This document shows, piece after piece, positions 19,315 to 58,074 of a DNA stretch of 64,000 nt (its first letter is position 1; the number at the start of each line of letters is the position of its first letter). Source of the stretch: an uncultured beta proteobacterium (GTDB lineage Bacteria; Pseudomonadota; Gammaproteobacteria; Burkholderiales; SG8-39). The stretch lies in NCBI GenBank assembly GCA_963810475.1, contig CAWENY010000013.1, forward strand, positions 76,816 to 140,815, given 5' to 3'. The translations under genes were made by a program, and so were the position numbers. The notes below the pieces were generated by a model that was given only the letters and a program-made list of their open reading frames with translations, did not search any database and was not told the origin of the DNA.

Positions 19315-20065
19315 GGTTGTTTTGCAGCATGCGCGGCCGAAAGCTGCCTGCGCACTCCTCGATCTCGAGCATGGTGGGCTCGATCTCGCCGGGCTTGAGG
19401 TGAGTGATGTAGATCTCGGCGTTGCGCTCGAGCTTGGCGAGCTCGTCGGCCAAAGTCTGCGGGCACAGGTGGCGCGAGATCTCGGCCAGCTGGCGCTCCT
19501 TGTTGGAAAAAGCGGTCTCGATGATGAGGAACTTGAGGTTGGCGATGCGGTTGACCACGCGCCACAAGGCGTCGTTCGGGCCGGTGTCGCCGGTGAACAC
19601 CAGGCTCGCGGCGCCGCTGTCGAGGTGATAGCCGACCGCCGGGACGGTGTGCCGCGCCGGCAGCGGCGTGATCTTGCGCCCGCCGAGCGTGGTCGTGTGT
19701 CCGAGCTCGATCTCCTGGTAGCGCAGGAACGGGGCCTCGGGGGTCGGGATCTCGGTGAAGTCCGGCCAGATCGCCCAGTTGAAGAGGTGGTTCTTCAGAA
19801 TCTCGATGGTGGCGCGGGTCGAGTACACCGTGAGCGGCTTGCTGCGCATGCCGCCGACGGTATCGACCAGGAACGGGATCGAGGTGACGTGGTCCAGATG
19901 CGAATGCGTGACGAAAATGTGGTCGATCTGCGACAGCTCCGCCAACGTCAGGTCGCCGACGCCGGTGCCGGCGTCGATCAGGATGTCGCTGTCGAGGAGG
20001 AACGAGGTGGTGCGCAGGTGGCGCCCGCCGATCCCGCCCGAGCATCCGAGCACGCGCAAACGCAT
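19298..20065 (-). CDS. class II 3',5'-cyclic-nucleotide phosphodiesterase (metallo-beta-lactamase fold)
   Basis: MRLRVLGCSGGIGG..LIDAGTG..IFVTHSHLDHV.. (HxHLDH), 255 aa. It sits inside the 989-aa track ORF but has its own ATG at 20063..20065. Confidence 0.8.
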   Translation of the reverse strand: MRLRVLGCSGGIGGRHLRTTSFLLDSDILIDAGTGVGDLTLAELSQIDHIFVTHSHLDHVTSIPFLVDTVGGMRSKPLTVYSTRATIEILKNHLFNWAIWPDFTEIPTPEAPFLRYQEIELGHTTTLGGRKITPLPARHTVPAVGYHLDSGAASLVFTGDTGPNDALWRVVNRIANLKFLIIETAFSNKERQLAEISRHLCPQTLADELAKLERNAEIYITHLKPGEIEPTMLEIEECAGSFRPRMLQNNLVLEF

Positions 20066-20082
20066 GGCGGTGTGGCGTTTTC

Positions 20083-22267
20083 CTATTTTTCGTCGAACAC
20101 GGTGACGCCGTCCCAGTCGGACGGCGGCGGGTTGCGACGCTTTTCCTGGATTCTCTGCATGATAGACGCCGTACAGACCACAGGCCGGGTTCACGGCGAG
20201 CAGGCGCCCCAAGCTCATGCTGGCGGCATCCCAGTCGCGCGCGCGATAGGCATGCAGGGCGAGTTGCCATTCCCGCAGCTCCGCATCCCCGGTCACCGCT
20301 TCCAGAGGCTCGTAGATGTTGATGGCCTCGTCTTTTCCTTTGACCTTGACCCGGTCGATTTCCCTGAATACCACATCTTGGACCTGGCTGCGCGTGGCCT
20401 CCCCGACCAGGATGCCGACGCCGTAGGCTTTTGTCCGCCCCTCCAGCCGCGAGGCGACGTTTACCGCATCCCCCATCGCAGTATAGGCGCGCCGCACTCG
20501 CGAGCCCATGTCGCCGACGCGGACTGTGCCGGAATTCACACCAATGCCGATCTTCAGCGCCGGCCAGCCGCGCGCGGCGAAGCGCGCGTTGAGCGATGCG
20601 CACTCGCGCTGCATCGCGAGCGCCGCCAGCAACGCGCTGCGCGCGTGCTCTGGGTTCTCCACCGGCGCCCCCCAGAACGCCATGATCGCGTCGCCGATGT
20701 ACTTGTCGAGCGTGCCGCGGTAGCGGTCGCGGATGATGCTGCTCATCTCGGTCAGGTATTCGTTGATGTACTCGCGCAGCGCATCCGGCGCGAGCGCCTC
20801 GGAGATGCTGGTGAAACCGCGGATGTCCGAGAACAGGATCGTCAGCTCCGCGCTTTTCGGCTTGTCGTACTTGTCCGGATCGAGCTCCATGCGCTCGACC
20901 ACTTCCGGTGGGACGTACTCGCGAAAGCGACCGGCGAGCCGCCGCTTGGAGCGCGACTCGACGAAGTAGCCGTAGGCCATGTTGAGCACGTAGATCGCGG
21001 CCGCGATCAGCACCGAGGCCGCGAGCGGCAGCACCAGCCCGCCCTGCCACACCATGAAGTTGAACGCGGCGATCGCGACGATGCCGAGCACCGTGGCGAG
21101 CGTCGCCCACAACGCCGACAGGCGCGGAATGAGGATGGCGAACGCGATGCCGCCGATCAGCAGCAGCACCACCTCGGCGCCGACCACGTACAGCGGCCGC
21201 TGCTTGACCTCGCCGTCGAGGATGCCCGCGATCATGTTGGCGTGGACTTCCACCCCGGGATAGGTGTCCGCGATCGGCGTCGGGCGCATGTCCTGAAGCG
21301 TCGGCGCGGTGCTGCCGATGATGGCGATCTTCCCCTGCAGCGCTTCGCGGGCGACGCGGTCGGCCGCCACATCGGCCAGTGAGATGTAGCGGAATGCGCC
21401 GCGCGCACGGTAGGGCACCAGCGCGCCGGCTTCCGCGTCCACCGGGATCTGCAGGCCGCCGACTCTCAGCCACTCGAGGTTGGGGTCGTCGGGCGGAAAG
21501 CCCGGCTCAACCGGCGGCGGCGCCGCGCCGGTCTGGCGCGCGAGCAGCGCGCGCACCACGGCAAGCGACAATGCTTCGTAGTACTCGCCGCCGTACTCGA
21601 CGATCAGCGGCACGCGGCGCAGTACGCCGTCGAAGTCCACGCGCGGATTGATGTGCCCGGCGGCGGTGGCGCTTTCGAGGTACAGCGGCAGATTGCCGGT
21701 GTAGCCGAAGATCTCCGGGAAGAACACGCGCCGGCCGTCGAACGTGCCCTTCGGCAGCACCGGACGGGGGAGCGCGTTTGCCTTGACCGCGCGCTCCTCG
21801 AAGTTGAAGTAGTAGCCGAGCACGACCGGCCTGTCCTTCATGCTCGCGGCAAAGCGGCGGTCGAAATCCAGACCAGGGCGCAGCTTGGCGTAAGCGGATC
21901 GAAACGCGGGAACGTCACGAGCGATCCGGTCCAGCACCTCGATGCCCGAGCTCGAGTCGCGCTCGGCCCAGACCACGTCGAAGCCGAGCACGGCGACGCC
22001 GTAGCGCTCGAACAGCTTGTCGACCAGCTCGGCCATCAGCCGCCGGTTCCATGGCCAGCGGCCGAGCTCGCCCAGGCTCTTCTCGTCGATGTCCAGGATG
22101 ACCAGGCGCGGGTCCACACTGCGCGGCATCGACATGCGAAGCCGCGTGTCGTAGATGATGTGGTCGAGCTGGGAAACCAGGCGCAGCTTGCCGTCGGCGG
22201 TGGGAAACCACTCCGCGGCGTGGGCTACGAAGAACAGCGTGATCGCGAGGCCGAGCGCGACCCTCAA
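20083..22267 (-). pseudogene. CHASE2 sensor / class III adenylate-guanylate cyclase, frameshifted 27 codons before its stop
   Basis: CHASE2-like periplasmic region, 3 TM helices, then the cyclase core ILFSDIRGFTSISE..GDAIMAFWGAP..IGIGVNSGTVRVGDMG. The C-terminal ..IMQRIQEKRRNPPPSDWDGVTVFDEK* (TAG 20083..20085) is in another frame. The junction is near 20160-20166. Length is 3n+1. Confidence 0.8.
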
Positions 22268-24124: not shown

Positions 24125-25057
24125 TCAGGTTCCGAGGATGGCGCCCGCCTTGATCGCGCCCGCGGCGAGCAATTCAACGGCCGCGAGCTTCTTTCCGTCG
24201 CCGAGCTTCGCGCGCAGTACTTCGATGCGCCCGCCCTGCGCGCTGACCTGGAAGGACTTGTCCGTCACTTCAACCACTTCGCCGATCTTTCCCTTGACCG
24301 CGCCGAAAGTGCGCACCGGATGCTTGCGCGCGTCGAAGATCTGCAGCTCGCTGCCGCCGAGGGTAGTCCACGCACCCGGCGCCGGGTTGCAGCCGCGGAT
24401 CGTGTTGTAGATGAAGTCGACGTGGTTCGCCCAGTTGACCTTCGCCTCGGCCTTGCGGCACCAGCCCTCGTAGGTGGCCTGCGACTCGTCCTGCACCACT
24501 TCATGATGCTTGTTCTTGATCACGAGATCTGCCGCTTCGAGCATCGCCTGCACCCCCATCGGGAACAGGCGGTCGAAGTACACCGTGCCGAGCGTGTCGT
24601 CGGCACTGATCGGCGTTTCCTTCTGCAGCACCACCGGGCCTTCGTCGAGGCCGTCGGTCGGGCGAAAGATGGTGAGGCCGGTCTTGGCGTCGCCGCGGAT
24701 GATCGGCCAGTTGATCGACGACGGCCCGCGATACTTCGGCAGCAGCGACGGGTGGTACTGGATCGTGCCGCGCTTCGGGATGTTGACGAAATCCTGCGGC
24801 GCGAACTGCAGCACGAACGCCATGATGCCCAGCTCGACGTTGAGTTTCTTCAGGGCTTGCTTGGCCTGGTCGCTTTTCAGAGAGGCGAATTGAAACACCG
24901 GCACGCCCTTTTCCTGCGCCGCGACCTTCAGCGCGTCCGGTCTCGCGCCCGTCTTTTCCGGCGCGCAGAACACGCCAGCGACCTCGTCCTTGCGCGCGAG
25001 GAACGCTTCGAGCACCGCTTTGCCGAAATCCTGCTGGCCGATGATGGCAATCTTCAT
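24125..25057 (-). CDS. formyltransferase-family protein resembling the N-terminal (hydrolase) domain of 10-formyl-THF dehydrogenase
   Basis: MKIAIIGQQDFGKAV..IQYHPSLLPKYRGPSSINWPII.GD..TG.TIF..DGLDEGPV. Fmt-like N- and C-terminal domains, 310 aa. Confidence 0.7.
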   Translation of the reverse strand: MKIAIIGQQDFGKAVLEAFLARKDEVAGVFCAPEKTGARPDALKVAAQEKGVPVFQFASLKSDQAKQALKKLNVELGIMAFVLQFAPQDFVNIPKRGTIQYHPSLLPKYRGPSSINWPIIRGDAKTGLTIFRPTDGLDEGPVVLQKETPISADDTLGTVYFDRLFPMGVQAMLEAADLVIKNKHHEVVQDESQATYEGWCRKAEAKVNWANHVDFIYNTIRGCNPAPGAWTTLGGSELQIFDARKHPVRTFGAVKGKIGEVVEVTDKSFQVSAQGGRIEVLRAKLGDGKKLAAVELLAAGAIKAGAILGT

Positions 25058-25079: not shown

Positions 25080-26351
25080 TCAGGCTGCCTTCTTAGGCGG
25101 CGCGCTCAGGGCGCCTGCGCTTTTCAGCGAGTTGATCTTGCTCTGATCGTAGTTCAGCACTTCACGCAGAATTTCCTCGGTGTGCTCGCCGAGCGTCGGC
25201 GAGCGCTCGATCTTCGCCGGCGAGTCCGACAGCTTGATCGGCATGCCGACGTTCCACCACTTGCCGCGCTGCGGATGGTCGAGCTCGACCCACATGTCGC
25301 GGCCGCGCACGTGCTCGTCGGTGGCCAGGTCCTGCGTGCTCATGATCGGGCCGCACGGCACGTCGAGCGGATTGAGGATCGCCATCAGCTCGCGCTTGGT
25401 GTACTTCTCGGCGAACTTGTTGATCAGCGTCCACATCAGGTTCTGGTTCTTCCGGCGGTCCGAAATCTTCGCGAACCGGGCGTCGCTTGCCATTTCGGGC
25501 ATGCCGACGTCGGGGCCGATGCGCTTGGCGAGGTCTTCCCACACCGCTTCCTGCACCACGACGTAGAGCCAGTCGTTGGGGCCATGCGGCTTGCAGTGGA
25601 TCGCGTTGCCGAGCTGGCCGCCGCCGGAATCGTTGCCGGCGCGCGGCACGTCCCCCATGCCCTTGTAGGTCGGCACCGAAAACTCCGACAGGTCGCCGCG
25701 CGTCAGGCGCTGGTGATCGCGGAACTTGACGCGGCACAGGTTCATCACGCCGTCCATCATCGCGACTTCGACGTATTGGCCTTTTCCGGTGTTTTCGGCT
25801 TGCCGCAAGGCCGCCAGCAGACCGATGGCCAGGTGCAGCCCGGTGCCGCTGTCGCCGATCTGCGCGCCGGTGACGAAAGGCGGACCGTCCGGTACGCCGG
25901 TGGTGCTCATCGCGCCGCCCATCGCCTGCGCCACGTTCTCGTAGGCCTTGAACTCGGCGTACGGCCCGCTCGAGCCGAAGCCCTTGATCGAGCCCATCAC
26001 GATCTTCGGGTTCAGCTCGCGGATCTTCTCCCAGGGGAAGCCGAAGCGGTCGAGCACCCCGGGGCCGAAGTTCTCCATGATGATGTGGCACTTCTTCAGC
26101 AGGTCGACGAACACCTGCTTGCCCTCGTTGGTCTTCATGTTCACGGTGATCGAGCGCTTGTTGCAGTTGAGCATCGTGAAGTAGAGCGAGTCGGCGTTCG
26201 GCACGTCGCGCAGCTGGCCGCGCGTCGCGTCGCCTTGCGGGTTCTCGAACTTGATCACGTCCGCGCCCATCCAGGCGAGCAATTGACTGCAGGTGGGTCC
26301 CGCCTGCACATGGGTCATGTCCAGGATGCGGACGCCTTTGAGTGCTTCCAT
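25080..26351 (-). CDS. frc: formyl-CoA:oxalate CoA-transferase
   Basis: [36 protein letters not shown]...[12 protein letters not shown].. (family III CoA-transferase, Frc-like), 423 aa. ATG at 26349..26351. This is the 3' third of the 1009-aa track ORF. Confidence 0.9.
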
Positions 26352-26365
26352 TTTCCCTCCGGAGA

Positions 26366-28109
26366 TTACTTCTTCTTCGCAGCGCTCGGATTGAGGCTGG
26401 TGATGCGGCCGCTCTCGGTTCCTGCCGTCTCGTCGATCACCGCGTTGATCAGCGTCGGCTTCCTCGAGCGAATCGCCTCTTCCATCGCCTTCCTCAGCTC
26501 GGCCGGGGTGGTGGCGTTCGCGCCCACGCCGCCGAAGGCTTCCATCAGCTTGTCGTAGCGCGCGTTCTTCACGAACACGGTCGGCGCGACATCGGGGCCG
26601 CCGGTCGGGTTGACGTCGGTGCCCTTGTAGACGCCGTTGTTGTTCATGATCACGATGCACACCGGCAGGTTGTAGCGGCAGATGGTCTCGACCTCCATGC
26701 CGGAGAAGCCGAAGGCGCTGTCGCCCTCGATCGCGATCACCTGCTGCTTGCTCACTACGGCGGCGGCGACGCAGTAGCCCATGCCGATGCCCATGATGCC
26801 CCAGGTGCCGACGTCGATGCGCTTGCGTGGCTTGTACATGTCGACGATGCTGCGCGTGAAGTCGAGCGCGTTGGCGCCTTCGTTGACGAACATCGCGTCC
26901 GGGTTCGCCTTCACGATGTCGCGCACCACGTTGAGCGCGCTGTGGAAGTTCATCGGCGACGGGTTCTTGGCCAGCGTCTCGGCCATCTTGGCGACGTTGG
27001 TGGTCTTCTTCTCCTGGATGGCGTTCAGCCACTCGGCCGGGGGTTTTGCCCAATTGCCTCCAATCCCGGCGAGTAATGCGGAAACACAAGAGCCGATGTC
27101 GCCGACCAGGGGCGCGTCGATGCGCACGTTGCTGTCGGCCTCCTGCGGCGAGATGTCGATCTGGATGAATTTCTGGCCGCCCCAATCCTTGTGGCCCTTG
27201 CCGCCCCAGGTCTTGCCCTTGCCGTGCGACAGCAGCCAGTTGAGCCGGGCGCCGATCAGCATCACCACGTCGGCCGCCGGCAGCACGAAGGAGCGCGCCG
27301 CCGACGCGCACTGCTCGTGCGTGTCGGGTAGCAGGCCTTTGGCCATGGACATCGGCAGATAGGGGATGCCGGTCTTTTCGATCAAGCGAACGAATTTCGG
27401 AATCGACCTGCGCATACGCAGCGCCCTTGCCAAGGATGATCAACGGTTTCTTGGAAGAACGAAGTAATTCAAGTGCGCGCTTGACCGCGTCCGGCGCGGG
27501 GATTTGCTTCGGCGCCGGATCGACGACCTTGATGAGCGAGTTCTTTCCGGCCGTTGCGTCGATGCTCTGCGCGAAGAGCTTCGCCGGGAAGTCGAGATAG
27601 ACGCCGCCCGGCCGGCCGGACACCGCGGCGCGAATGGCGCGCGCGATGCCGACGCCGATGTCATCGGCATGCAGCACGCGGAAAGCGGCCTTGGCGACCG
27701 GCTTGGCGATGGCGAGCTGATCCATCTCCTCGTAGTCCCCCTGCTGCAGGTCGACGATCTCGCGCTCGCTCGAGCCGCTGATCAGGATCATCGGGAAGCA
27801 GTTGACGGTGGCATGCGCCAGCGCGTTCAGGCCGTTCAGGAAGCCGGGCGCGGATACGGTGAGGCAGATGCCCGGCTTCTGCGTGAGGAAGCCGGCGATC
27901 GAGGCCGCGTAGCCGGCGTTCTGCTCGTGGCGGAACGACAGCACGCGCAACCCCGAGGCCTGCGCGCGGCGCGTCAGGTCCGTGATCGGGATGCCGGGCA
28001 AACCGTAGATCGTATCGAGGCCGTTGAGCTTGAGGGCATCGATGACCAGTTGGAAGCCGTCGGTGGTTTGCTGCACGTCGGTGGCGATTTGCGGTTCGGC
28101 GGTGCCCAT
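26366..28109 (-). pseudogene. oxc: oxalyl-CoA decarboxylase (ThDP enzyme), single frameshift as assembled
   Basis: The N-terminal 235 aa are in the 25080..28109 frame (..[10 protein letters not shown]..). The rest is in ORF 26366..27433 (..[41 protein letters not shown]..). The junction is an extra base in T3 27395..27397. Length is 3n+1. Confidence 0.9.
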
Positions 28110-28194
28110 GGCTGGCTCCTTGCTCTAAGCGCGGCTTCTCGCGCTACTACTTCTACGGGACCGATATGGTAAAAACCCGTGTCCCCCGGCAGCC

Positions 28195-28208
28195 TTGACT
28201 GCGGTCAA
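28195..28208. promoter_or_regulatory. Crp/Fnr-family type palindromic box TTGAC-TGCG-GTCAA in the oxc / regulator divergent region
   Basis: Perfect 5+5 palindrome, extended as CCTTGAC-N4-GTCAAGG at 28193..28210. It lies 86-99 nt upstream of oxc and 38-51 nt upstream of the Crp/Fnr gene. Three similar boxes occur elsewhere in the window. Confidence 0.6.
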
Positions 28209-28245
28209 GGGTTCAAAAGGGAGCGCCAATAGCCGCGCCTAATGC

Positions 28246-28854
28246 ATGACTTCTCTATCCGCGCACCCGCAACGCAACAGCGTCCGCCTGCAATTGCGCC
28301 AGAACCCGCTTTTGCAGGGGATCAGCAACGCCCAGTGGAGCGAGCTCGAGCCACTGTTGCTCGTGGCCGACTACCGCAAGGGCGACCCGCTGGTGCGCCA
28401 GGGCGACGAGGAGATGGAGCAGTTCTTCATCGTCGAGGGCATGCTCAAGCGCGTGGTGTCGAACCCCGAGGGGCGCGAGATGATCCTGCGCTTCGCGGCC
28501 GAGAACGAGATGGACACCTCCTACGCCGCCTGGCGCCTGCGCACGCCGGTGCCCTACTCCATCGTCGCCGTGACCAAGGTGCGCACCGTCGAGCTGCCGA
28601 TGCCGGTGTGGGCCGAGTATCCTCGAGAAGCACCGCGAGCTCAAGGAGCGCTTCGAGCACGAGGTGATGAAGCTGATGTCGGAGGTGATGGCGCACACCA
28701 TCACGCTGCACCTGCTCGACGCGCCCGGCCGCCTGTCGCGCTTCCAGCGCAAGCACCCGGAGCTCGCCGGGCCGCATCCCGAAAAAGGAGCTGGCGGCCT
28801 ACCTCAACCTCACGCCCGAAACGCTTGTCGCGCCTCAAGCAGAAGCTGGGATGA
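28246..28854 (+). pseudogene. Crp/Fnr-family transcriptional regulator with three single-base insertions (net frame restored)
   Basis: The cNMP-binding-like N-terminus is in frame 1. ..LEKHRELKERFEHEVMKLMSEVMAHTITLHLLDAPGRLSRFQRKHPELAG is in frame 2. RIPKKELAAYLNLTPETL (the HTH) is in frame 3. SRLKQKLG* is back in frame 1. Junctions lie near 28621, 28769-28773 and 28826-28828. Confidence 0.75.
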
Positions 28855-29626
28855 GGATTCCCTACGCCGCGTGCCCCCTCTGCGACGCGCGCGACAGCGT
28901 CGGAAGTGACCGTCGCCGACTGCTCGGGACACGAGCTCTACAAGCCCCCGCTGCCGCGCGACGCAGCGCTGGCTGCGCTGCCGGGCTTGCGACCACATGT
29001 ACGTGGACGGCTATTTTTCCCCCGAAGCGCTGAAAATCCTGTTCTCGGGCACGCAGCCGAGCCAGCGGCCGGGCCACGACATCGAAGGCCAGCGCTTCGC
29101 GTGGGCCAGCGTGCTCGACGCGGTCGGCGCGCTGCGCGCTTCGTTCGGCGGGCGCTGGCTCGATATCGGCTTCGGCAGCGGCGCGCTGCTCACCACGGCG
29201 GCGGAATTCGGCTACGAAGTGGCAGGCATCGACCTGCGCGAGGAGAACGTGCGGCTGATGCGCGAGGCCGGCTTCGATGTGCACGCGGTCGAGCTTGCCG
29301 CGTACCGCGCCGCCGCGCCGTTCGACGTCGTTTCCATGGCCGACGTGCTCGAGCACATGCCGTTTCCAAAGCGCGCGCTGCGCGACGCGCGGCAGCTCCT
29401 GCAACCGGGCGGCCTGCTGTTCCTCTCGATGCCGAACGCCGACGCGTTCGTCTGGCAGGCGTCGACCCGGGCCGGCACCAACCCCTACTGGGGCGAGATC
29501 GAGCACTACCATAACTTCGGCCGCCGGCGCCTGACCGCGCTGCTCGAGGAATGCGGCTTCGCGGTGCTGCGCTACGGCGTGAGCTTCCGCTACCGCATGT
29601 GCATGGAGCTGATCGCGCGGCGCTAG
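28851..29626 (+). pseudogene. Zn-ribbon + class I SAM-dependent methyltransferase, two frameshifts in the N-terminal ribbon
   Basis: MRIPYAACPLCDARDSV / EVTVADCSGHELYKPPLP / ATQRWLRCRACDHMYVDGYF.. lie in three successive frames, with junctions near 28900-28903 and 28956-28960. The methyltransferase core is WLDIGFGSGAL..VVSMADVLEHM. ATG 28851 overlaps the regulator TGA as ATGA. Confidence 0.7.
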
Positions 29627-31131
29627 GCGCGGCGCAGCTTCGCGATCAGCCAGGAGATCAGCGGCCAGAAGAGCAGCAGCAGGGCGAGCGTGGTCATGAA
29701 GCCGACCAGCTTCTTCGAGAACAGGATGCCCATGTCGCCCTGCGACATGAGCATCGCCTGGCGGAACGAGGACTCGGCGTTGTCGCCGAGCACGATCGCC
29801 AGCACGAGCGGCGCCAGCGGGTAGTTCAGCTTCTTGAAGAGATAGCCCAGGATGCCGAACACCACCATCATCCACACGTCGAAGATCGCGTTTTTCACCG
29901 TGAACGAGCCGATGGCGCAGATCACCATGATGATCGGCGCGATCACCGAGAACGGGATGCGCAGGATGGCGGCGAAGAGGGGCACGCAGGTGAGCACCAC
30001 GATCAGGCCGGCGATGTTGCCCAGGTACATCGAGGCGATCAGGCCCCAGACGAAATCCTTCTGCTCGACGAACAGCAGCGGCCCGGGCTGCAGGCCCCAG
30101 ATCATCAGCCCGCCGAGCAGCACCGCCGCGGTGGGCGAGCCCGGCACGCCGAGCGTGATCATCGGCAGCAGCGCCGCGGTGCCGGCGGCGTGCGCCGCGG
30201 TCTCGGGCGCGACCACGCCCTCGACCTTGCCGGTGCCGAACTGGTTGCCGTCGGGCGAGAAGCGCCGCGCCACCCCGTAGCTCATGAACGAGGCCGGCGT
30301 CGCGCCGCCCGGCACGATGCCCATGAAGCAGCCCACCGCGGAGGAGCGCAGCGAGGTCAGCCAGTAGCGCGGCAGCTCCTTCCAGGTCTCGAGCACCACG
30401 CGCACGTTGATCTTCGCCGACGCGCCGCGGAAGGCGAGGCCTTCCTCGAGCGTGAGCAGGATCTCGCCGATGCCGAACAGGCCGATCACCGCCACCAGGA
30501 AGTCGAAGCCGGTGAGCAGATGGGTCGAGCCGAACGTCAGGCGCAGCGTGCCGGTCACGGTGTCGAGGCCGACCGCGGCGAGCGCGAAGCCCAGCATCAT
30601 CGCCGCGATGGTCTTGAACGGCGGCTCCTTGCTGGTGCCGACGAAAGCGCAGAAGGTGAGCAGGTACACGGCAAAGAATTCCGGCGGCCCGAACTCGAGC
30701 GCGAAGCCCGCGACGACCGGCGAGAGAAAGGTGATCACCACCACGGCGACGAAGGCGCCGATGAACGACGAGGTGAAAGCCGCGGTGAGCGCGGCGCCGG
30801 CGCGCCCCTGCTGCGCGAGCGGGTAGCCGTCGAAGGTGGTGGCGACCGACCACGGCTCGCCCGGGATGTTGAACAGGATCGAGGTGATGGCGCCGCCGAA
30901 CAGGGCGCCCCAGTAGATGCACGAGAGCAGGATGATCGCCGAGGTGGCGCCGCCCGGCGTCTGCGCCATGCCGAAGGTGAGCGGCAGCAGGATGGCGACG
31001 CCGTTCGCCCCGCCCAGGCCCGGCAGCACGCCGATGATCACCCCCAGGATCACGCCGGTGAACATCAGCGCGATGTTGGTCGGCGTGAGCGCCACGCCGA
31101 AGCCGTGCATCAGCGACTGGATCTCGTCCAT
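29623..31131 (-). CDS. tctA: tripartite tricarboxylate transporter permease TctA
   Basis: Intact 502-aa polytopic ORF (MDEIQSLMHGFGVALTPTNIALMFTGVILGVIIGVLPGLGGANGVAILLPLTF..), typical of TctA. Confidence 0.9.
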   Translation of the reverse strand: MDEIQSLMHGFGVALTPTNIALMFTGVILGVIIGVLPGLGGANGVAILLPLTFGMAQTPGGATSAIILLSCIYWGALFGGAITSILFNIPGEPWSVATTFDGYPLAQQGRAGAALTAAFTSSFIGAFVAVVVITFLSPVVAGFALEFGPPEFFAVYLLTFCAFVGTSKEPPFKTIAAMMLGFALAAVGLDTVTGTLRLTFGSTHLLTGFDFLVAVIGLFGIGEILLTLEEGLAFRGASAKINVRVVLETWKELPRYWLTSLRSSAVGCFMGIVPGGATPASFMSYGVARRFSPDGNQFGTGKVEGVVAPETAAHAAGTAALLPMITLGVPGSPTAAVLLGGLMIWGLQPGPLLFVEQKDFVWGLIASMYLGNIAGLIVVLTCVPLFAAILRIPFSVIAPIIMVICAIGSFTVKNAIFDVWMMVVFGILGYLFKKLNYPLAPLVLAIVLGDNAESSFRQAMLMSQGDMGILFSKKLVGFMTTLALLLLFWPLISWLIAKLRRA

Positions 31132-31619
31132 TCAGTTCAACCCGACCCAGGACTTCCAGCGGGCCCTTGGGCAGCGGCACCTTGAACCAGATCTCGAAGA
31201 TGACGTAGAACACCACCACCGTGACGACGCTGACCGGCGACCACCTTCCACCACGGATACTTGCCCAGCCAGCGCATGAAGAAGCCGATGAACAGCACCG
31301 ACGAGACGTAGATGCCGATCCAGGTCACGAGCGCGGCGTAGATCGCGGTCGGGATCAGCACCGTGAGCACCATCTTCAGCTGCCCGCGCTCGACAAACGC
31401 CTTGTTCTGCGCCGCCGGCACGCGCAGCGCGAGCACCATGTTGACCAGCGACGCGATGCAGATGATCAGGCCGATGTAGAACGGGAAGTAGCCAGGCCGC
31501 GGCCCGTGCACCTCCTGCCAGCCGATGCCCAGGCGCACGCTGTCGGTGATGACGATGCCGCCCAAAATGAAGAAGAGCGCCGCCACTGCCAGCTCGGCGC
31601 TCTTCCGGTGAAAGCGCAG
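31132..31619 (-). pseudogene. tctB: TctB small membrane subunit, two frame changes; start uncertain
   Basis: ..RFHRKSAELAVAALFFILGGIVI..FMRWLGKYPWWKVV (track ORF 31137..32255 frame) -> VSVVTVVVFYVIFEIWFKVPLPKGPLEVL (28862..31219 frame) -> VGLN* with TGA immediately before the tctA ATG. Junctions lie near 31233-31240 and 31145-31150. The only candidate start I see is CTG 31617..31619. Confidence 0.55.
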
Positions 31620-31636
31620 CGTTTGTCTGGCTATTG

Positions 31637-32638
31637 CTATTGCCCTGCGATGAAGCCGGCGGCCTTCATCAGCTGCACGTGGCGCGCTTCTTCCTTCGCC
31701 ACCCAGTCGGCGTACTGCTGGCCGGCGAGCGCGGTGGTGTTGAACGCGCCCTCTTCCATCAGCTTCTTCCACTCCGGCGTCGCCATCACCTTCTTGAACA
31801 GGCCCGTGTAGTAGGCGACGTGCTCGGGCTTCACGCCGGGCGGCATGAAGATGCCGCGCAGCATCAGGTAGTCGACGTCGAGCCCGGCTTCCTTGCAGGT
31901 CGGGATGTCGCTCCAGCCCATCTTGTCGGTGACCTTCTCCTTGTAGGGCAGGCGCTTCTGCTCGAACACGCACAGCGGGCGCAGGTTGCCGCCGCGCCAC
32001 TGCGCCACCGCCTCGATCGGGTTGTTCACCGTCGAGTCGACGTGGCCGCCGACGAGCTGCGTCGCCACCGCGCCGCCGCCCTTGAAGGGAATGTAGGTGA
32101 ACTTGGCGCCGGTCTTCTGCTCGATCGCCACGGTGATGATCTGGTCTTCCTGCTTGGCACCGGTGCCGCCCATCTTCATCTTGCCGGCGCCGGCCTTCTT
32201 CGCCGCCTCGACGTACTCCTTCGCGTTCTTGTACGGCGTCTTCGCGTTGACCCACAGCACGAAGTTGTCGAGCGCCAGCATCTGCACCGGCGTCAGGTCG
32301 CGCCAGTTGAACGGCACCCCCGTGGCGAGCGGCGTGGTGAACAGGTTGGAAAGCGTGATGATGATCTTGTGCGGATCGCCGGCGGCGTTCTTCACGTCGA
32401 GGAAGCCCTCGGCGCCGGCCCCGCCCGCCTTGTTGATGGGCAGGATGGACTGCTTCATCAGGCTATGCTTGGCGACGATGCCCTGGATGGCGCGTGCCAT
32501 CTGGTCGGCGCCGCCGCCGGTGCCGGCGGGGATGATGAACTCGACGTTCTTGGTCGGCTCCCAGGACTGCGCCTGCGCCGCGAACGGTGCGGCCAGTGCA
32601 ACGCTGAGTACTAGGGTATTGCGCAACGCGTGTTTCAT
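31637..32638 (-). CDS. tctC: TctC / Bug-family periplasmic substrate-binding protein
   Basis: Signal peptide MKHALRNTLVLSVALAAPFAAQA. It has ..FIIPAGTGGGADQMAR.. and a C-terminal ..YADWVAKEEARHVQLMKAAGFIAGQ typical of the family. Confidence 0.85.
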   Translation of the reverse strand: MKHALRNTLVLSVALAAPFAAQAQSWEPTKNVEFIIPAGTGGGADQMARAIQGIVAKHSLMKQSILPINKAGGAGAEGFLDVKNAAGDPHKIIITLSNLFTTPLATGVPFNWRDLTPVQMLALDNFVLWVNAKTPYKNAKEYVEAAKKAGAGKMKMGGTGAKQEDQIITVAIEQKTGAKFTYIPFKGGGAVATQLVGGHVDSTVNNPIEAVAQWRGGNLRPLCVFEQKRLPYKEKVTDKMGWSDIPTCKEAGLDVDYLMLRGIFMPPGVKPEHVAYYTGLFKKVMATPEWKKLMEEGAFNTTALAGQQYADWVAKEEARHVQLMKAAGFIAGQ

Positions 32639-32730
32639 GACTCCTCCTAAAGTTTCACCCTTCGCTGCGCCGCACCATTCTCTGGGGTGCTGGTCGCACG
32701 GATTCTCATGCTCCCCGTCTATGCGCAGCC

Positions 32731-32744
32731 TTGACCACGATCAA
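32731..32744. promoter_or_regulatory. Crp/Fnr-type box TTGAC-CACG-ATCAA upstream of tctC
   Basis: 9 of 10 palindromic positions match. It lies 93-106 nt upstream of the tctC ATG and overlaps the stop of the terC-family gene. Confidence 0.45.
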
Positions 32745-33502
32745 GACTTGGAGCGGTCAACCTCGACAGCCGCTTCATGCACCGCGGCCCTCATGGCCCT
32801 GCGCTTGCCGATCAACGTTCCAGCGGCAATCACGATGACCGCGCCGGCCAGGCCGCAGATGATTTCCAGGCTCAAGCCGCCGACCTTGGGCTTCTCGCCG
32901 TCGAACTCCACGCCGATGCCCGAGAGCCAGCCTTTGAGCGCCGGGTCGGTGACCAGCATCTCGCCGGCGACGAAGCCGAGCAACCCGCCGCCGATGGTGA
33001 TGATGACGGGCCAGCGCTCCATCAGGTGCAGGAGCAGGGTCGAGCCGAAGATGACGAGCGGGATGGAGATCGCCAGGCCGAGCACCAGCAGCGTCATGCT
33101 GCCCTGCGCCGCCGCGGCGACCGCGATCACGTTGTCGATGCTCATCACCAGGTCGGCGATCAGGATGGTCTTGATCGCCGAGATCAGGTTGTCGCTGGCG
33201 TCGATGTTCTCGTCGCCCTCTTCCGGCAGCAGCAGCTTGATGCCGATCCAGAAGAGAAGCAGGCTGCCGACCAGCTTCAGCCACGGCAGCGTGAGCAGCG
33301 CGACGGCGAAGATGGTGAGCACGATGCGCATCGCCACCGCCGCGCCCGAGCCCCACAGCACCGCCGCCTTCTGCTGGCGCTGCGGCAGCGAGCGGGCGGC
33401 GAGCGCGATGACCACCGCGTTGTCGCCCGACAGGATGAGGTTGACGCCGATGATTTTCAGCAGGCCGATCCAGAAGACCTGCGTGTAGAGCTCGTCGAGC
33501 AT
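32741..33502 (-). CDS. TerC/YjbE-family integral membrane protein
   Basis: ..NLILSGDNAVVIALAAR.. and ..DLVMSIDNVIAVAAAA.. are the duplicated TerC-family motif. 253 aa. Confidence 0.8.
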   Translation of the reverse strand: MLDELYTQVFWIGLLKIIGVNLILSGDNAVVIALAARSLPQRQQKAAVLWGSGAAVAMRIVLTIFAVALLTLPWLKLVGSLLLFWIGIKLLLPEEGDENIDASDNLISAIKTILIADLVMSIDNVIAVAAAAQGSMTLLVLGLAISIPLVIFGSTLLLHLMERWPVIITIGGGLLGFVAGEMLVTDPALKGWLSGIGVEFDGEKPKVGGLSLEIICGLAGAVIVIAAGTLIGKRRAMRAAVHEAAVEVDRSKS

Positions 33503-33511
33503 CGACTTATT

Positions 33512-35182
33512 CTAGAACAGGCCCACGACCTTGCCGTCGACAAGATCGATCTTGTTGGCGGAGGGCACCTTCGGCAGGCCGGGCATGGTCATGATGTCGC
33601 CGCAGATCATCACCACGAACTCGGCGCCGGCGGACAGCCGCACCTCGCGAACGTTGACGACGTGGTCGCTGGGCGCGCCGCGCGTCGCCGCGTTGGTGGA
33701 GAACGACGACTGGGTCTTCGCCACACACACCGGGAAGTGCCCGTAGCCGTCGTCCTGCAGCTTCTGAATCTGCGCCCGCACCTTGCCATCGGCGGTGACG
33801 CTGCCCGCGCGGTACACCTTCTTCGCGATCTTCTCCATCTTCTGCCATAGCGGGTCGGCGTCCTCGTACACGAAGGTCGGCTTCGACGGCTTGTCGCAGA
33901 GCTGCACCACGATCTTCGCGAGATCAGCCGCGCCCTTGCCGCCCTCGCCCCAGTGGCTTGCGAGCACCACCTCGACGCCGAGCTTTTTCATCCGCTCGGT
34001 CACCAGCCGGATTTCGGCTTCGGTGTCGAAGGTGAACTTGTTGATCGAGACCACGCACGGGATACCGTAGACCTTGGACACGTTCTCGACGTGGCGCTCG
34101 AGGTTGACCAGGCCCTTCTCCACCGCCGCCAGGTTCTCCTTGCTCACGTCCTTCACCTCGACGCCGCCGTGGTACTTGAGCGCGCGCATCGTCGCGACGA
34201 TCACCGCCGCGCTCGGCATCAGGCCGGTCTTGCGGCACTTGATGTCGAGGAACTTCTCCGCGCCGAGGTCGGCGCCGAACCCGGCTTCGGTGACAACATA
34301 GTCCGCCAATTTCAATGCTGACTGGGTGGCGAGCACCGAATTACAGCCGTGCGCGATGTTGGCGAACGGCCCGCCGTGCACGAAGGCGGGGTTGTTCTCC
34401 AGCGTCTGCACCAGGTTCGGCGCGATCGCGTCCTTGAGGAGCACCGTCATGGCGCCGTGTCCCTGCAGGTCGCTTGCCTTGACCGGCTTCTGGTCGCGCG
34501 TATAGCCGACCACGATATTCCCCAGCCGCTTCTTCAGGTCTTCAAGCGAAGTCGAGAGGCAGAAGATCGCCATCACTTCGGAAGCGACGACGATATCGAA
34601 GCCGTCCTGGCGCGGGTAGCCGTTGGCGGTGCCGCCCAGGCCGACGGTGATGTCGCGCAGCGCGCGGTCGTTCATGTCGAGCACGCGCTTCCACTGGATG
34701 CGGCGCACGTCGATGCCGAGCTCGTTGCCGTGGCTGATGTGGTTGTCGATCAGCGCCGCGAGCAGGTTGTTGGCGAGCTGGATCGCGCCGAAGTCGCCGG
34801 TGAAGTGCAGGTTGATGTCTTCCATCGGCACGATCTGCGCATAGCCGCCGCCGGCGGCGCCGCCCTTCACGCCGAACACCGGCCCGAGCGAGGGCTCGCG
34901 CAGGCAGATGATCGCCTTCTTGCCGATGTAATTGAGCGCGTCGCCCAGCCCCACGGTGGTGGTGGTCTTGCCTTCGCCGGCGGGCGTGGGGCTGATCGCG
35001 GTGACCAGGATCAGCTTGCCGTTCTTCTTGCCTTTCAGGCTGTCGAGGTATTTGAGCGAGACCTTGGCCTTGTAGTGGCCGTAGGGCTCGAGGTGCTCCT
35101 CGGCGATTCCCAGCTTCTCGCGCGCCACGGCGGCGATGCGCTGCATTTTTCCAGCCTGTGCGATTTCGATGTCCGACGGCAT
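33512..35182 (-). CDS. fhs: formate--tetrahydrofolate ligase
   Basis: [36 protein letters not shown]..; 556 aa, collinear with Fhs along its length. Confidence 0.95.
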
Positions 35183-35215
35183 TCCTGGTCTCCCCTGATG
35201 GTGAATCGACCCGAC

Positions 35216-35632
35216 CTACTTGACGAGCAGGACGGGTACGTCCGAGATGTGCAGCACCTTGGTGGCGGTGGAGCCCATCAGCGCTTTGCCGAGCTCGCTC
35301 ATGCCGCGGGTGCCGATGTAGATGAGGTCGCAGCGCTTGTCCTTGGCGTGCTTGACCAGCGTCTCGGCCACCGGGCCGACCAGCGCGCTCGCCTTGTACG
35401 GGATGCCGGCGCGGTCGAGCTCCCTTTTCGCCGCGGCCAGCATGCCTTCGCCTTCCTCCTGGTAATAGCGCTCGAGCTGCGCCTTGTTCAAGCGCCCGAC
35501 CTTCGGCACCGGCAGGTGCACCGCGACCACCTCGACCGACGGAGGAACGCGATACCAGTCGCAATGCTGGACCAGCAGCTGCACCGCCTTGAGCGACGGC
35601 TTGGAGCCGTCCACCGCTACCAGTATTTTCAT
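35216..35632 (-). CDS. universal stress protein (UspA family)
   Basis: MKILVAVDGS..LIYIGTRGMSELGKALMGSTATKVLHISDVPVLLVK. Its ATG overlaps the fdsA stop as ATGA (35629..35632). Confidence 0.85.
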   Translation of the reverse strand: MKILVAVDGSKPSLKAVQLLVQHCDWYRVPPSVEVVAVHLPVPKVGRLNKAQLERYYQEEGEGMLAAAKRELDRAGIPYKASALVGPVAETLVKHAKDKRCDLIYIGTRGMSELGKALMGSTATKVLHISDVPVLLVK

Positions 35633-38433
35633 TTGTAGAGCTCTTCGAGTGTACGTCCCTTGCCGTAGCCGGGATCGCCCGGCTTGGCCCCGCCGCGCGT
35701 CACCTTCACCGCGCAGTACTTGAACTCCGGAATCTTGCCGAACGGGTCGAGCGCCGGATTGGTCAGCAGGTTTGCCGCCGCCTCGTAGTAGCAGAACGGA
35801 ATGAACACCGCGCCGCGCGGCGTGCCGGCGTCCGCCCTCGCGTACAAGGCGATCTTGCCGCGCCTGGACTCTACGGTGAGGAGCTCACCAGGCCTCACTT
35901 TCAATTTGTCCAGATCCAGGGGGTGAAGCGACGCCGTGGGCGCCGGCTCGATGGCGTCGAGCACGCCCGAGCGGCGCGTCATCGCGCCGGTGTGCCAGTG
36001 CTCGAGCTGCCGCCCGGTCATCAGGATCATCGGGTACTGCGCATCGGGCTGCTCGTCGGCCGGGATCAGGTCGGCGGGAACGAACTTGCCGCGCCCGGTG
36101 GGGGTCGGGAAGTGCGTGGTGAACACCACCGGCTGGCCGGCGTCGCCCTCGTTTTCGCACGGGTAGGTCACCGAGGAATCGCGCTCCAGCCGCTCCCAGG
36201 TGATGCCGCGGATCGAGTCCATGCACTGCCGCATTTCATCCCAAACCTCTTTCGGCTTCTCATAAGGCCAGTCGAGGCCAAGACGGCGCGCGAGCTGCAC
36301 GATGATCCAGAGGTCCTCTTTCGCCTCGCCCGGCGGCTGCAGCGCCTTGCGGCCGAGCTGCACCATGCGGTCGGTATTCGTCACCGTGCCGTCCTTCTCG
36401 GGCCAGGCGGTGGCGGGCAGCACCACGTCGGCGAGATAGGCGGTCTCGGTCAGGAAAATGTCCTGCACCACCAGGTGCTGGAGCTTGGCCATCGCGGCGC
36501 GCGCGTGGTCGACATCAGGGTCGGACATCGCCGGGTTCTCGCCCATGATGTACATGCCGCGGATTTTTCCCGCGTACGCCGCGTCCATGATCTCGACCAC
36601 GGTGAGGCCCGGCTTCGGATCGAGCTTCGCGCCCCACAGCTTCTCGAAGCGCTGCTGCGCCTCGGGCGTCGCCACGCGCTGGTAGTCGGGATACATCATC
36701 GGGATCAGCCCGGAGTCGGACGCGCCCTGCACGTTGTTCTGGCCGCGCAGCGGGTGCAGCCCGGTGCCGGGCCGGCCGACCTGGCCGGTCATCAACGTGA
36801 GCGCGATGAGGCAGCGCGCGTTGTCGGTGCCGTGGATGTGCTGCGAGATGCCCATGCCCCACAGGATCATCGAGCCCTTCGAGGTGGCGTAGGCGCGGGC
36901 CACCTCGCGGATGGTCTCGGCCGGGATGCCGCAGATCGGCGCCATCTTCTCCGGCGAGAAGTTCTTCGCGTTTTCCTTCAGCGCCTCGTAGCCGCTGGTG
37001 CGGTCCTTCACGAACGCTTCATTCACCAGGTTCTCGTCGATGATGGCGTGGATCATCGCGTTGAGCAGCGCCACGTCGGTGTCGGGCTTGAACTGCAGCA
37101 TGCGCCACGCGTGGCGCGCGAGCTCGCCGCGCCGCGGGTCGGCGTAGACCAGCTTCACGCCGCGCCTGGCGGCGTTCTTCATCCAGGTCGCCGCCACCGG
37201 ATGGTTGGAGGTCGGGTTCGCGCCGATGAGGAAGATGAGCTCGGCGTTCTCGACGTCGTTCACCTGGTTGGAGACGGCGCCGGAGCCGATGCCCTCGAGC
37301 AGCGCGGCGACCGACGAGGCGTGACACAGGCGCGTGCAATGGTCGACGTTGTTGGTGCCGAAGCCGGTGCGCACCAGCTTCTGGAAGAGATACGCCTCTT
37401 CATTCGAGCCTTTGGCCGAGCCGAAGCCGGCGAGCGCGTTGCGGTCCTGGTCGCGCACCGCCTTCAGCCCTTCGGCGGCCTTCTGCAGCGCGGTTTCCCA
37501 GGAAACCTCCTCGAACACCTCTTTCCAGTTTGCCGGGTCGGCGGTGAACGTGGAGGTCTTCGGGAAGCCGGGCTTTCTGATCAGCGGCTTGGTCAAGCGC
37601 TGCGGATGCGCCGCATAGTCGAAGCCGTAGCGCCCCTTGACGCACAGGCGGCTATGGTTCGACGGGCCGTCCTTGCCGGTGACGAACTGGATCACGTTGC
37701 TCTTCACGTGATAAGTGAGCAGGCAGCCCACGCCGCAGAACGGGCACACCGAGTCCACCGTCTTGTCGATCTTTTTCAGGCCGACCTCGCGCGCCGGCAT
37801 CAGCGCGCCGGTCGGGCAGGCCTGCACGCACTCGCCGCACGCCACGCAGGTCGACTCGCCCATCGGGTCGTCGAGGTCGAACACCGGCACCGAGCGGTCG
37901 CCGCGGTAGGCGTAGCCGATGACGTCGTTCACCTGCACTTCGCGGCAGGCGCGCACGCAGCGCGTGCACTGGATGCACGCATCGAGGTTGACTGCCATCG
38001 CGGGGTGCGACAGGTCCGCCCTGGGCTGCTGCCGGCGGGCGAAGCGGGGCTTCTGCACGCCGATCCTGGTCGCCCACTGCTTCAACTTGTTGTCGAGCGT
38101 GTATTCCTTCTCCGGCATGTCGGAGAGCAGCAGCTCGAGCACCATCTTCTGCGAGCCGAGCGCGCGCGGCGAGTTGGTGGTGACTTCCATGCCGGCCACC
38201 GGGAAGCGGCAGCACGACGGCGCGAGCGTGCGCTCGCCCTTGATCTCGACCACGCAGGCGCGGCAGTTGCCGTCGGAGCGCTGGTTGCCGCCGTGGCACA
38301 GGTGCGGGATGTCGACGCCGTGCTTTTTCGCCGTGGTGATGATCGGCTCGTCGGGCCGGCCGACCACGGTCTCGCCGTTGAGCTTGAACTCGATCGGCAT
38401 CATCGCGAGCTGGCGGTCTTTGATTCTTTCCAT
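35629..38433 (-). CDS. fdsA: NAD-dependent formate dehydrogenase alpha subunit (Mo/W-bis-MGD, FdsA type)
   Basis: N-terminal 2Fe-2S/4Fe-4S Cys clusters (..HLCHGGNQRSDGNCRACVVEI.., CIQCTRCVRACREV, CVACGECVQACPTGAL, CPFCGVGC). These are followed by molybdopterin oxidoreductase domains. ATG 38431..38433 overlaps the fdsB TGA by 1 nt. Confidence 0.9.
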   Translation of the reverse strand: MERIKDRQLAMMPIEFKLNGETVVGRPDEPIITTAKKHGVDIPHLCHGGNQRSDGNCRACVVEIKGERTLAPSCCRFPVAGMEVTTNSPRALGSQKMVLELLLSDMPEKEYTLDNKLKQWATRIGVQKPRFARRQQPRADLSHPAMAVNLDACIQCTRCVRACREVQVNDVIGYAYRGDRSVPVFDLDDPMGESTCVACGECVQACPTGALMPAREVGLKKIDKTVDSVCPFCGVGCLLTYHVKSNVIQFVTGKDGPSNHSRLCVKGRYGFDYAAHPQRLTKPLIRKPGFPKTSTFTADPANWKEVFEEVSWETALQKAAEGLKAVRDQDRNALAGFGSAKGSNEEAYLFQKLVRTGFGTNNVDHCTRLCHASSVAALLEGIGSGAVSNQVNDVENAELIFLIGANPTSNHPVAATWMKNAARRGVKLVYADPRRGELARHAWRMLQFKPDTDVALLNAMIHAIIDENLVNEAFVKDRTSGYEALKENAKNFSPEKMAPICGIPAETIREVARAYATSKGSMILWGMGISQHIHGTDNARCLIALTLMTGQVGRPGTGLHPLRGQNNVQGASDSGLIPMMYPDYQRVATPEAQQRFEKLWGAKLDPKPGLTVVEIMDAAYAGKIRGMYIMGENPAMSDPDVDHARAAMAKLQHLVVQDIFLTETAYLADVVLPATAWPEKDGTVTNTDRMVQLGRKALQPPGEAKEDLWIIVQLARRLGLDWPYEKPKEVWDEMRQCMDSIRGITWERLERDSSVTYPCENEGDAGQPVVFTTHFPTPTGRGKFVPADLIPADEQPDAQYPMILMTGRQLEHWHTGAMTRRSGVLDAIEPAPTASLHPLDLDKLKVRPGELLTVESRRGKIALYARADAGTPRGAVFIPFCYYEAAANLLTNPALDPFGKIPEFKYCAVKVTRGGAKPGDPGYGKGRTLEELYK

Positions 38434-40079: not shown

Positions 40080-40118
40080 GCGAAATCCTATTATCGTTCA
40101 ATGGGGCAGCGCGTTTTC

Positions 40119-55751: not shown

Positions 55752-55783
55752 GGTTGACCGGGTGGGTGACCGAGCGGGTGACC
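55752..55783. repeat. three direct repeats GGKTGACC with 12-bp spacing
   Basis: GGTTGACC 55752..55759, GGGTGACC 55764..55771, GGGTGACC 55776..55783. They lie between the sucD stop and the proposed start at 55730 of the next gene. Confidence 0.5.
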
Positions 55784-56657
55784 TATTTCAGCACGGACTT
55801 CAGCGTCTTGCCCATCTCGGCCGGGTTGCGCGTCACCTTGATGCCGCACGCCTCCATCACGGCGAGCTTCTCCTGCGCCGTGCCCTTGCCGCCGGAAATA
55901 ATCGCGCCGGCGTGGCCCATGCGCTTGCCCGGCGGGGCGGTAATGCCGGCGATGAACCCCACCACCGGCTTCTTCATGTGGTTCTTGACCCATTGGGCGG
56001 CGATCTCCTCGTCCGAGCCGCCGATCTCGCCCACCATGATCACCGCCTCGGTCTGCGGGTCGTCGTTGAACATCTTCATCACGTCGATGTGCTTGAGCCC
56101 GTTGACCGGGTCGCCGCCGATACCGACACAGCTCGACTGGCCCAGGCCCAGCTCCGTCAGCTGCCCCACCGCCTCGTAGGTCAGCGTGCCCGAGCGCGAC
56201 ACCACGCCGATCGGTCCTCGCTTATGGATGTGCCCCGGCATGATGCCGATCTTGATCTCGTCCGGCGTGATCACGCCCGGGCAGTTCGGGCCGACCAGCA
56301 GCGTGCGCTTGCCTTTCATGCGGTGCTTGGTGCGGATCATGTCGCGCACCGGGATACCCTCGGTGATGCAGATCACGAGGTCGAGGTCCGCGTCCACCGC
56401 CTCGTCGATCGCCGCGGCCGCGAACGGCGGCGGCACGTAGATCACCGACACGTTGGCGCCGGTCTGCGCCTTCGCGTCCTTCACCGTACCGAAGATCGGA
56501 ATGCCCTCGAAATTCTCGCCCGCCTTCTTCGGATTCACGCCGGCGACGAAGCAGGCCTTGCCGTTGGCATAGGCCCGGCTGGTCTGCGTGTGGAACATGC
56601 CCGTCTTGCCGGTGATGCCCTGCGTCATCACCCGCGTGTTCTTGTCGATGAGGATGC

Positions 56658-56661
<4 letters not shown>
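55783..56661 (-). CDS. sucD: succinate--CoA ligase (ADP-forming) alpha subunit
   Basis: [37 protein letters not shown].. 292 aa. Confidence 0.95.
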
Positions 56662-58055
<1,394 letters not shown>

Positions 58056-58074
58056 TGTCGTTCTATCGTCCGCG

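Follow-up and report, generated by a model that had tools for sequence, protein, structure and literature searches.

A conserved palindromic box, its neighbouring Crp/Fnr-type regulator and a proposed regulon for oxalate and formate catabolism in uncultured soil Burkholderiales

Dimers of the Crp/Fnr family bind TTGAT/TTGAC-N4-ATCAA/GTCAA palindromes, which are usually centred near -41.5 or further upstream; a box centre near -41.5 is the canonical layout of class II activation. E. coli fnr is autoregulated via a box in its own promoter, as we predict here for another member of the family, and in CprK and NtcA the beta-roll domain holds a small organic ligand. A regulator of formate oxidation is known from Cupriavidus necator, where FdsR, a formate-responsive activator of the LysR type that is not known to be linked to oxalate genes, acts on fdsGBACD. 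Published FNR/DNR sites with TTGAC/GTCAA half-sites are located at -41.5 or -39.5, and such a site can work both ways (PMC5398030). Of transcriptional control over oxalate degradation in bacteria, a recent review states that it "has also been understudied", environmental pH being the sole regulator named there (PMC13409138). Our literature search returned neither a paper linking Fnr to oxc/frc nor an oxalate-responsive bacterial regulator of the Crp/Fnr type.

Almost the same gene set as described below forms one cluster (oxc-frc-acs-sucCD-nuoF-fdhF) on pTT6-2 of Skermanella sp. TT6, which independently shows that the genes of our proposed regulon are functionally linked. This cluster differs in having a GntR-family regulator and in being contiguous, not dispersed over four promoters, and its 35.8 kb, used as a control, contain no TTGAC-N4-GTCAA box. 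The acetate-CoA-ligase-family gene of Skermanella has no counterpart in the window, by which we mean the whole 64-kb stretch of DNA analysed here, or in the related loci. A megablast search of 20 kb against plasmids yielded only alphaproteobacterial relatives at ~76% identity.

The gene map of the window is based on sequence reading, tblastn with annotated Skermanella proteins and Pfam/NCBIfam (Table 1). Adjacent frc and oxc equivalogs, i.e. an oxalate catabolic module of the oxc/frc type, are present, with oxc frameshifted in the window. For fmtL, the best NCBIfam match is Fmt, with 162.7 bits under the cut-off of 201.5. A first-pass annotation had reported three perfect TTGACN4GTCAA palindromes and one near-perfect copy in this DNA; all four were confirmed by pattern search, and the distances it gave to fdsB, sucC and tctC are correct (Table 1). 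Box 1 separates the divergent start codons of oxc (ATG at 28109, minus strand) and of the regulator gene (ATG at 28246, plus strand). No perfect box occurs inside the fdsB-fdsA-usp-fhs-terC operon of the window.

Table 1. Genes, boxes and predicted -10 hexamers in the window, in order of position
Feature	Position	Strand	Basis or remark
fmtL, Fmt-like formyltransferase	24125-25057	-	third gene of oxc operon; Pfam Formyl_trans_N+C
frc, formyl-CoA transferase	25080-26351	-	TIGR03253, 556 bits (cut-off 504)
oxc, oxalyl-CoA decarboxylase	26366-28109	-	tblastn, two HSPs in different frames, 67-76% identity to annotated Skermanella Oxc
Predicted -10 of P_oxc, TACCAT	28166..28171	-	23 nt after box 1; ATGGTA on plus strand kept across loci
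Box 1, CTTGACTGCGGTCAAG	28194..28209		core 28195-28208, TTGACTGCGGTCAA; oxc/regulator divergent intergenic region; orthologous box in 79/79 loci
Crp/Fnr-family regulator gene	28246-28854	+	three-frame translation, PF00027, ETLSR helix; repaired product 201 aa
Methyltransferase	28997-29626	+	
tctC-tctB-tctA operon, tripartite tricarboxylate-type (TTT) transporter	29623-32638	-	Pfam TctC, TctB, TctA
Predicted -10 of P_tctC, GAGAAT	32702..32707	-	23 nt after box 2
Box 2, TTGACCACGATCAA	32731..32744		minus strand CTTGATCGTGGTCAAG; 93-106 nt upstream of tctC ATG 32638
terC (TerC/YjbE)	32741-33502	-	
fhs, formate-THF ligase	33512-35182	-	
usp (Usp)	35216-35632	-	
fdsA, NAD-type formate dehydrogenase	35629-38436	-	
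fdsB, NAD-type formate dehydrogenase	38433-40079	-	
fdsB-fdsA-usp-fhs-terC, whole operon	32741-40079	-	
Predicted -10 of P_fdsB, GATAAT	40090..40095	-	23 nt after box 3, 10 nt before ATG
Box 3, TTGACGGCGGTCAA	40119..40132		40-53 nt upstream of fdsB ATG 40079; kept in 8/8 fdsB loci, 7 independent contigs
Aldo-keto reductase (AKR)	40160-41131	+	
sucD	55783-56661	-	Pfam; sucC-sucD 55783..58055, ADP-forming succinate-CoA ligase
sucC	56658-58055	-	NF001913, 570 bits (cut-off 370)
Predicted -10 of P_sucC, GACGAT	58065..58070	-	23 nt after box 4, 9 nt before ATG
Box 4, TTGACGCCGGTCAA	58094..58107		39-52 nt upstream of sucC ATG 58055; kept in closest relative L082, ~10/49 sucC loci
DUF2889	58075-58665	-	

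We propose, with a probability of roughly 0.8, that the four boxes are operators (CTTGAC-N4-GTCAAG) of the Crp/Fnr regulator encoded next to box 1, acting as a dimer, which the palindromic box implies, by class II activation of its targets and negative autoregulation. The effector-bound regulator would be centred ~41.5 bp ahead of the points where transcription begins in four units, oxc-frc-fmtL, tctCBA, fdsBA-usp-fhs-terC and sucCD, all of which it would activate, and occupancy of box 1 would repress the divergent regulator gene. The motif statistics, the conservation, the constant spacing from box to hexamer and the family features of the protein are read directly from the data, whereas we infer that this protein binds the boxes, which way it regulates, where transcription begins and what kind of effector is involved.

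The assignment of the local gene to the Crp/Fnr family, made in the first-pass annotation, is borne out by its cNMP domain and by a recognition helix of the FNR/DNR type (E--SR). The cNMP_binding domain (PF00027) covers residues 42-129 (E=5.6e-11, 42.7 bits against a cut-off of 27.5). Pfam HTH_Crp_2 gave no match to the regulator at E<=0.001; the C-terminal helix-turn-helix aligns with its counterparts in CRP, FNR and DNR. Its recognition helix, TPETLSRL, is invariant in 26 homologous sequences. In alignments of the family profile this helix falls on PETFSRI of DNR (3dkw, alignment through residue 202) and opposite RETVGRI of CRP (alignment through residue 196), and the regulator helix also aligns with VETISRL of E. 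coli FNR. FNR/DNR-type DNA specificity is predicted from the E--SR helix. AlphaFold2, run on a shallow alignment of 25 sequences, gave a model of low confidence (mean pLDDT 57) with a predicted helix at residues 130-158, a candidate for the long dimerisation helix between the two domains. There is no cysteine in the repaired 201-aa protein or in the family consensus, and the cAMP contacts E72, R82 and S83 are replaced by S, V and P in a HMMER alignment with 4bh9_A. The regulator is therefore not an oxygen sensor of the Fe-S type, nor is it a receptor for cAMP.

With the FNR/ANR/DNR/FixK branch the regulator thus shares the cNMP-like sensor domain, the C-terminal HTH and the E--SR helix (ETLSR here, ETFSR in DNR). 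Further common features, here predicted from sequence, are the TTGA-N6-TCAA type of box, its class II (-41.5) placement and the use of one box in both directions (PMC5398030). Unlike the members of this branch, the regulator is a short protein of 201 aa whose chain stops directly behind the recognition helix, its box has C at position 5 in 90% of half-sites and conserved outer C/G positions, and the linked genes serve oxalate/formate catabolism, not respiration or denitrification. To E. coli FNR it has ~26% identity and lacks the cysteines of an Fe-S oxygen sensor; DNR is a weak PDB match (E=7e-6). E. coli CRP can be aligned with residues 40-196 (E about 1e-5) and has the same class II geometry, but differs in its helix (RETVGR versus PETLSR) and in its box, TGTGA-N6-TCACA instead of the TTGAC type. 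Among solved structures the best relative is a structural-genomics entry, PDB 3dn7 ("cyclic nucleotide binding regulatory protein"; E=7.5e-12, residues 32-199), which has the same short architecture; its helix reads PEYLSE, not ETLSR. For metabolite sensing by a cysteine-free, cAMP-independent regulator, CprK and NtcA offer a plausible analogy, with no relationship found that is closer than superfamily level. FdsR controls a formate dehydrogenase that is likewise soluble and NAD-dependent, also in a bacterium of the Burkholderiales, and differs in protein family and operator.

No NCBIfam family covers the regulator, its sole match being a spurious partial one to an encapsulin cNMP domain. In plasmid and chromid records of cultured organisms, tblastn gave nothing above 31% identity, so that these records contain no close cultured homologue. 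Among 1.84 billion cluster representatives only 52 were found at E<=1e-30, mostly fragments, indicating that the clade is narrow and without a characterised member; a handful of full-length sister clusters at 36-50% identity carry ETLSR, ETLCR or ETLHR. Relatives in the wider sense are present in several hundred public genome assemblies and in thousands of metagenome protein clusters. The 64-kb window contains no second Crp/Fnr paralogue. In five related loci (L165-L169) and on a P0230 contig, a protein of 328-357 aa with cNMP_binding as its only match is encoded a few kb from fdsB, adjoining a PP-binding/AMP-binding/acyltransferase gene.

A contig scan (tblastn, one genome per GTDB species) gave 499 stretches with a regulator relative, of which the best 80, each from a different record, were kept with 10-kb flanks; nearly all are labelled as MAGs of uncultured Burkholderiales or Betaproteobacteria. 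Among these best 80 of 499, the regulator is divergent from oxc(-frc) with a box in between in 79/79 covered loci, and a box precedes tctC in 33 of 44 and fhs in 30 of 38 covered loci. In relatives without usp, fhs has a separate box. The gene fmtL follows frc in every locus reaching that far (at least 53 loci, L002-L081). Genes internal to operons have no box within 250 nt upstream (frc 0/56, fmtL 0/53, tctA 0/57, terC 0/32 and fdhF 0/15). The loci amount to 1.015 Mb and contain 149 boxes against a chance expectation below one, and in this sequence none was found before an unrelated gene. Only six of the 149 lie outside the main classes, in front of oxlT (2), a TerC-like gene (3) and oxc (1). 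The OxlT assignment is based on TIGR04259, the oxalate/formate antiporter equivalog (646 bits, cut-off 335). Since box-preceded oxlT occurs in loci without tctCBA adjoining the regulator, the data suggest that OxlT and tctCBA fill the same role in the regulon. The two box-preceded oxlT genes are located at about 1730-3180 in L007, where no tctCBA is seen, and at 10701-12040 in L033, between the regulator and a more distant tctCBA.

Because fdsB lies just past the 10-kb flanks, eight fdsB-centred loci from seven independent contigs were fetched in addition, and all eight have a CTTGACCGCAGTCAAG-type box followed by CGATAATAG. The picture is different for sucC: in a metagenome scan, 10 of the 49 loci listed have a box, including the closest relative (L082, 91% identity, same position), so that most of the listed sucC orthologues lack one. 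In one of the box-bearing loci it is a canonical FNR-type box, TTGATCCCCATCAA. The first-pass annotation had put oxc/frc, fdsBA, tctCBA and sucCD under the box; conservation supports the first three (79/79, 8/8 and 33/44 loci), while for sucCD the box of the window and of L082 stands against a sporadic occurrence elsewhere. Further predicted members are fhs, the Fmt-like formyltransferase and, in some species, oxlT.

The 149 boxes define the full motif as the 16-bp palindrome CTTGAC-N4-GTCAAG. Its outer C/G, absent from the search pattern, is conserved in 95% of the boxes and thus marks the longer palindrome as the true motif; position 5 of the half-site is C in 90%.

Genes for formate dehydrogenase and the TCA cycle are typically under oxygen control, and one may ask whether the boxes serve a global O2/NO-responsive regulator of the FNR/ANR/DNR type encoded elsewhere, with the local regulator as a mere target or minor competitor. 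The generic box of the FNR family, TTGA(C/T)-N4-(G/A)TCAA, fits such a regulator (PMC5398030), as do the canonical TTGAT...ATCAA boxes at some sucC loci of other lineages. Moreover, our box survey covered the regions flanking the regulator, and paralogues with the same E--SR helix may be encoded elsewhere in the genomes. However, regulator, box and oxc are co-localised in every covered locus (79/79), the local protein bears the matching ETLSR helix, and throughout about 1.15 Mb the boxes stand, without exception, before genes for oxalate, formate or transport, OxlT included. The outer C/G flanks and the C at position 5 (90%) also set the motif apart from TTGAT-ATCAA. Denitrification genes were found neither in the window nor in the loci. 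Taken together, we consider control by a global regulator improbable, and the neighbouring Crp/Fnr protein remains our candidate for binding the boxes.

Positions downstream of the boxes are equally regular. On the target strand, an nAnnAT hexamer begins exactly 23 nt after the box end for 82% of the 149 boxes, other offsets reaching 5% at most, and all four boxes of the window obey this spacing. The hexamer reads TACCAT at oxc, GA(C/G)AAT at tctC, A(C/G)AAT or TATAGT at fhs and GATAAT at fdsB. The box centre is 30.5 nt before the hexamer; if the latter is the -10 element, the box would be centred at about -41.5 to -42.5, which is class II activator geometry. In box-anchored alignments, no recognisable -35 element was seen at any target, the six bases at this place being non-consensus. 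Our proposal of class II activation is based on this combination of a -10 hexamer with a missing -35 element at the target promoters. With 9-11 nt between predicted hexamer and ATG, the mRNAs of fdsB, sucC and, in relatives, the regulator would be leaderless or near-leaderless. In the case of fdsB the hexamer assignment could be wrong, because AGGA is found just upstream of the ATG in the window.

On the regulator side of box 1, TAnAAT follows 5-7 nt after the box in 60 of 78 loci, and in 42 of 65 loci having TAnAAT the start codon comes 8-11 nt after it. The box would span about -31 to -18 of this inferred promoter (P_reg) and overlap its -10 region. Autorepression is predicted from this overlap with the core promoter, in line with the earlier proposal that the regulator gene controls itself. 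That proposal had also treated box 3 as shared between fdsB and the divergent AKR gene. The box does lie between both genes, but the AKR start codon at 40160 is only 27 nt from the box end, too close for class II activation, so that we regard AKR as a neighbour and not as a predicted target.

Some of these distances would also suit a regulator that binds the boxes purely as a repressor and is released by an inducer. At fdsB and sucC the box centres are only ~46 nt from the start codon, and at P_reg and towards AKR the boxes reach into core promoter space. A repressor operator, however, needs no fixed phasing over four operons and 80 species, which disfavours this model in view of the rigid 23-nt spacing to the -10-like hexamer; the absence of a recognisable -35 at any target also argues against it, and the two traits are typical of class II promoters that depend on an activator. 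We therefore rate pure repression as unlikely, and class II activation by the local regulator as the reading to be followed.

Two of the boxes touch neighbouring genes. Box 4 coincides with the final codons of the DUF2889 gene, which directly precedes sucCD in many Betaproteobacteria-like metagenome contigs (L082-L130), often without an intergenic gap. The terC stop codon (TGA, 32741-32744 in the window) is situated within box 2, in its promoter-distal half, or lies immediately beside it, a layout kept in several relatives (L037, L047, L057, L071 and L079).

For the pattern TTGACNNNNGTCAA, the 64-kb window has three exact matches, starting at 28195, 40119 and 58094, whereas the average over dinucleotide-shuffled sequences is 0.04, with not one of 100 shuffles having three or more. 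With the relaxed pattern TTGAYN4RTCAA, the fourth match (TTGACCACGATCAA, 32731-32744) is added; 0.01 are expected, and four or more were reached in 0/100 shuffles. At up to two mismatches to the box, 18 sites were found against 12 expected in the window, which is not clearly more than chance. Besides the four boxes, sites with one mismatch occur only at 22293 and 58310, both within coding sequence. The former was dropped, being in coding sequence and without a -10 hexamer at 23-nt spacing. It falls within the final codons of the preceding gene, looks fortuitous, and lies just upstream of the gene at 19298-22267 (minus strand). The product of the latter gene has 989 aa, with an MBL-fold domain (RNase Z-like or phosphodiesterase-like) at the C-terminal end and no annotation over its long N-terminal part. 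Scored with a 22-nt matrix from the 149 orthologous boxes, only the four boxes exceed 12 bits in the window. The earlier estimate that the perfect copies are not due to chance is upheld by these shuffles (~0.01-0.04 expected). That the palindromes are accidental or a non-regulatory repeat (REP-like or a mobile-element remnant), as the G+C-rich genome with palindromic repeats being common and the overlap of boxes 2 and 4 with coding sequence might suggest, is effectively refuted by the shuffles, in which the observed counts were reached in 0/100, by the footprint and spacing, position and orientation likewise being kept over 80 species while the flanks diverge, and by an Rfam scan of the window in which no RNA family matched.

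Not all genes of the proposed regulon are intact in the window. The regulator gene has three +1 frameshifts, at about 28621, 28772 and 28827, in CC, CC and TT runs; its repaired 201-aa product is 95% identical over 100% of the length to intact 201-aa proteins of Burkholderiales MAGs. In oxc there is one +1 frameshift near 27385 in an AA run (an indel relative to the related locus L002), and two frame changes occur in A-rich runs of the Lys-rich SucC tail (56660-56940). The genes frc, fmtL, tctABC, terC, fhs, usp, fdsAB and AKR are intact. Between positions 37004 and 40774 the window and independent JGI contigs with an identical fdsB product (L170, L171) have 98.2% DNA identity and no gaps. As the indels fall in homopolymer or A-rich runs, they are probably sequencing or assembly errors rather than signs of decay, with pseudogenisation of the regulator and oxc as the other possibility. 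The regulator promoter, as judged from its sequence, has diverged in the genome of the window. At 28214-28219 it reads CAAAAG where most relatives have TAaAAT, leaving a degenerate P_reg hexamer, and the regulator ATG is 37 nt from the box, compared with 21-22 nt typical of relatives. Given the three regulator frameshifts and the degenerate predicted -10 (CAAAAG), the regulatory system may be inactive in this genome.

Put together, the conserved regulon is real and well supported, and the neighbouring Crp/Fnr regulator very likely has its operator in the box, as far as sequence comparison can tell. The mechanism is known, being textbook class II Crp/Fnr control; new are the clade, the assignment to oxalate/formate and the question of the effector. 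Physiologically, the TTT transporter, or OxlT in some species, would import oxalate, which Frc and Oxc would convert to formate and CO2. FdsBA would oxidise formate to CO2 with NAD, whereas Fhs, perhaps together with the Fmt-like enzyme, would feed C1 units to folate. SucCD, a variable member, may supply succinyl-CoA as a CoA donor. The position of fmtL after frc, taken with the membership of fhs in the regulon, is a hint that formyl-CoA/formate and the folate C1 pool may be connected in an as yet unexplored way.

As effectors, oxalate or a CoA-thioester intermediate are the obvious candidates. More tentatively, and with somewhat less than even odds in our estimation, the regulator could be the first dedicated oxalate-pathway sensor of the Crp/Fnr type, its cysteine-free, cAMP-independent beta-roll directly binding oxalate, oxalyl-CoA, formyl-CoA or formate, and five promoters switching on uptake, decarboxylation, formate oxidation and C1 assimilation in a widespread lineage of uncultured soil Burkholderiales. 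If this is true, the 16-bp box and the regulator would make an oxalate biosensor and a marker that predicts oxalotrophy in metagenomes; as a short and testable operator, the box could serve in biosensor or reporter work. For oxalate/formate catabolism in this uncultured soil lineage of the Burkholderiales, a conserved regulator, operator and regulon are now proposed, and the regulon predicts accessory genes of the pathway: a TTT transporter that is likely to take up oxalate, an Fmt-like formyltransferase, fhs and sucCD.
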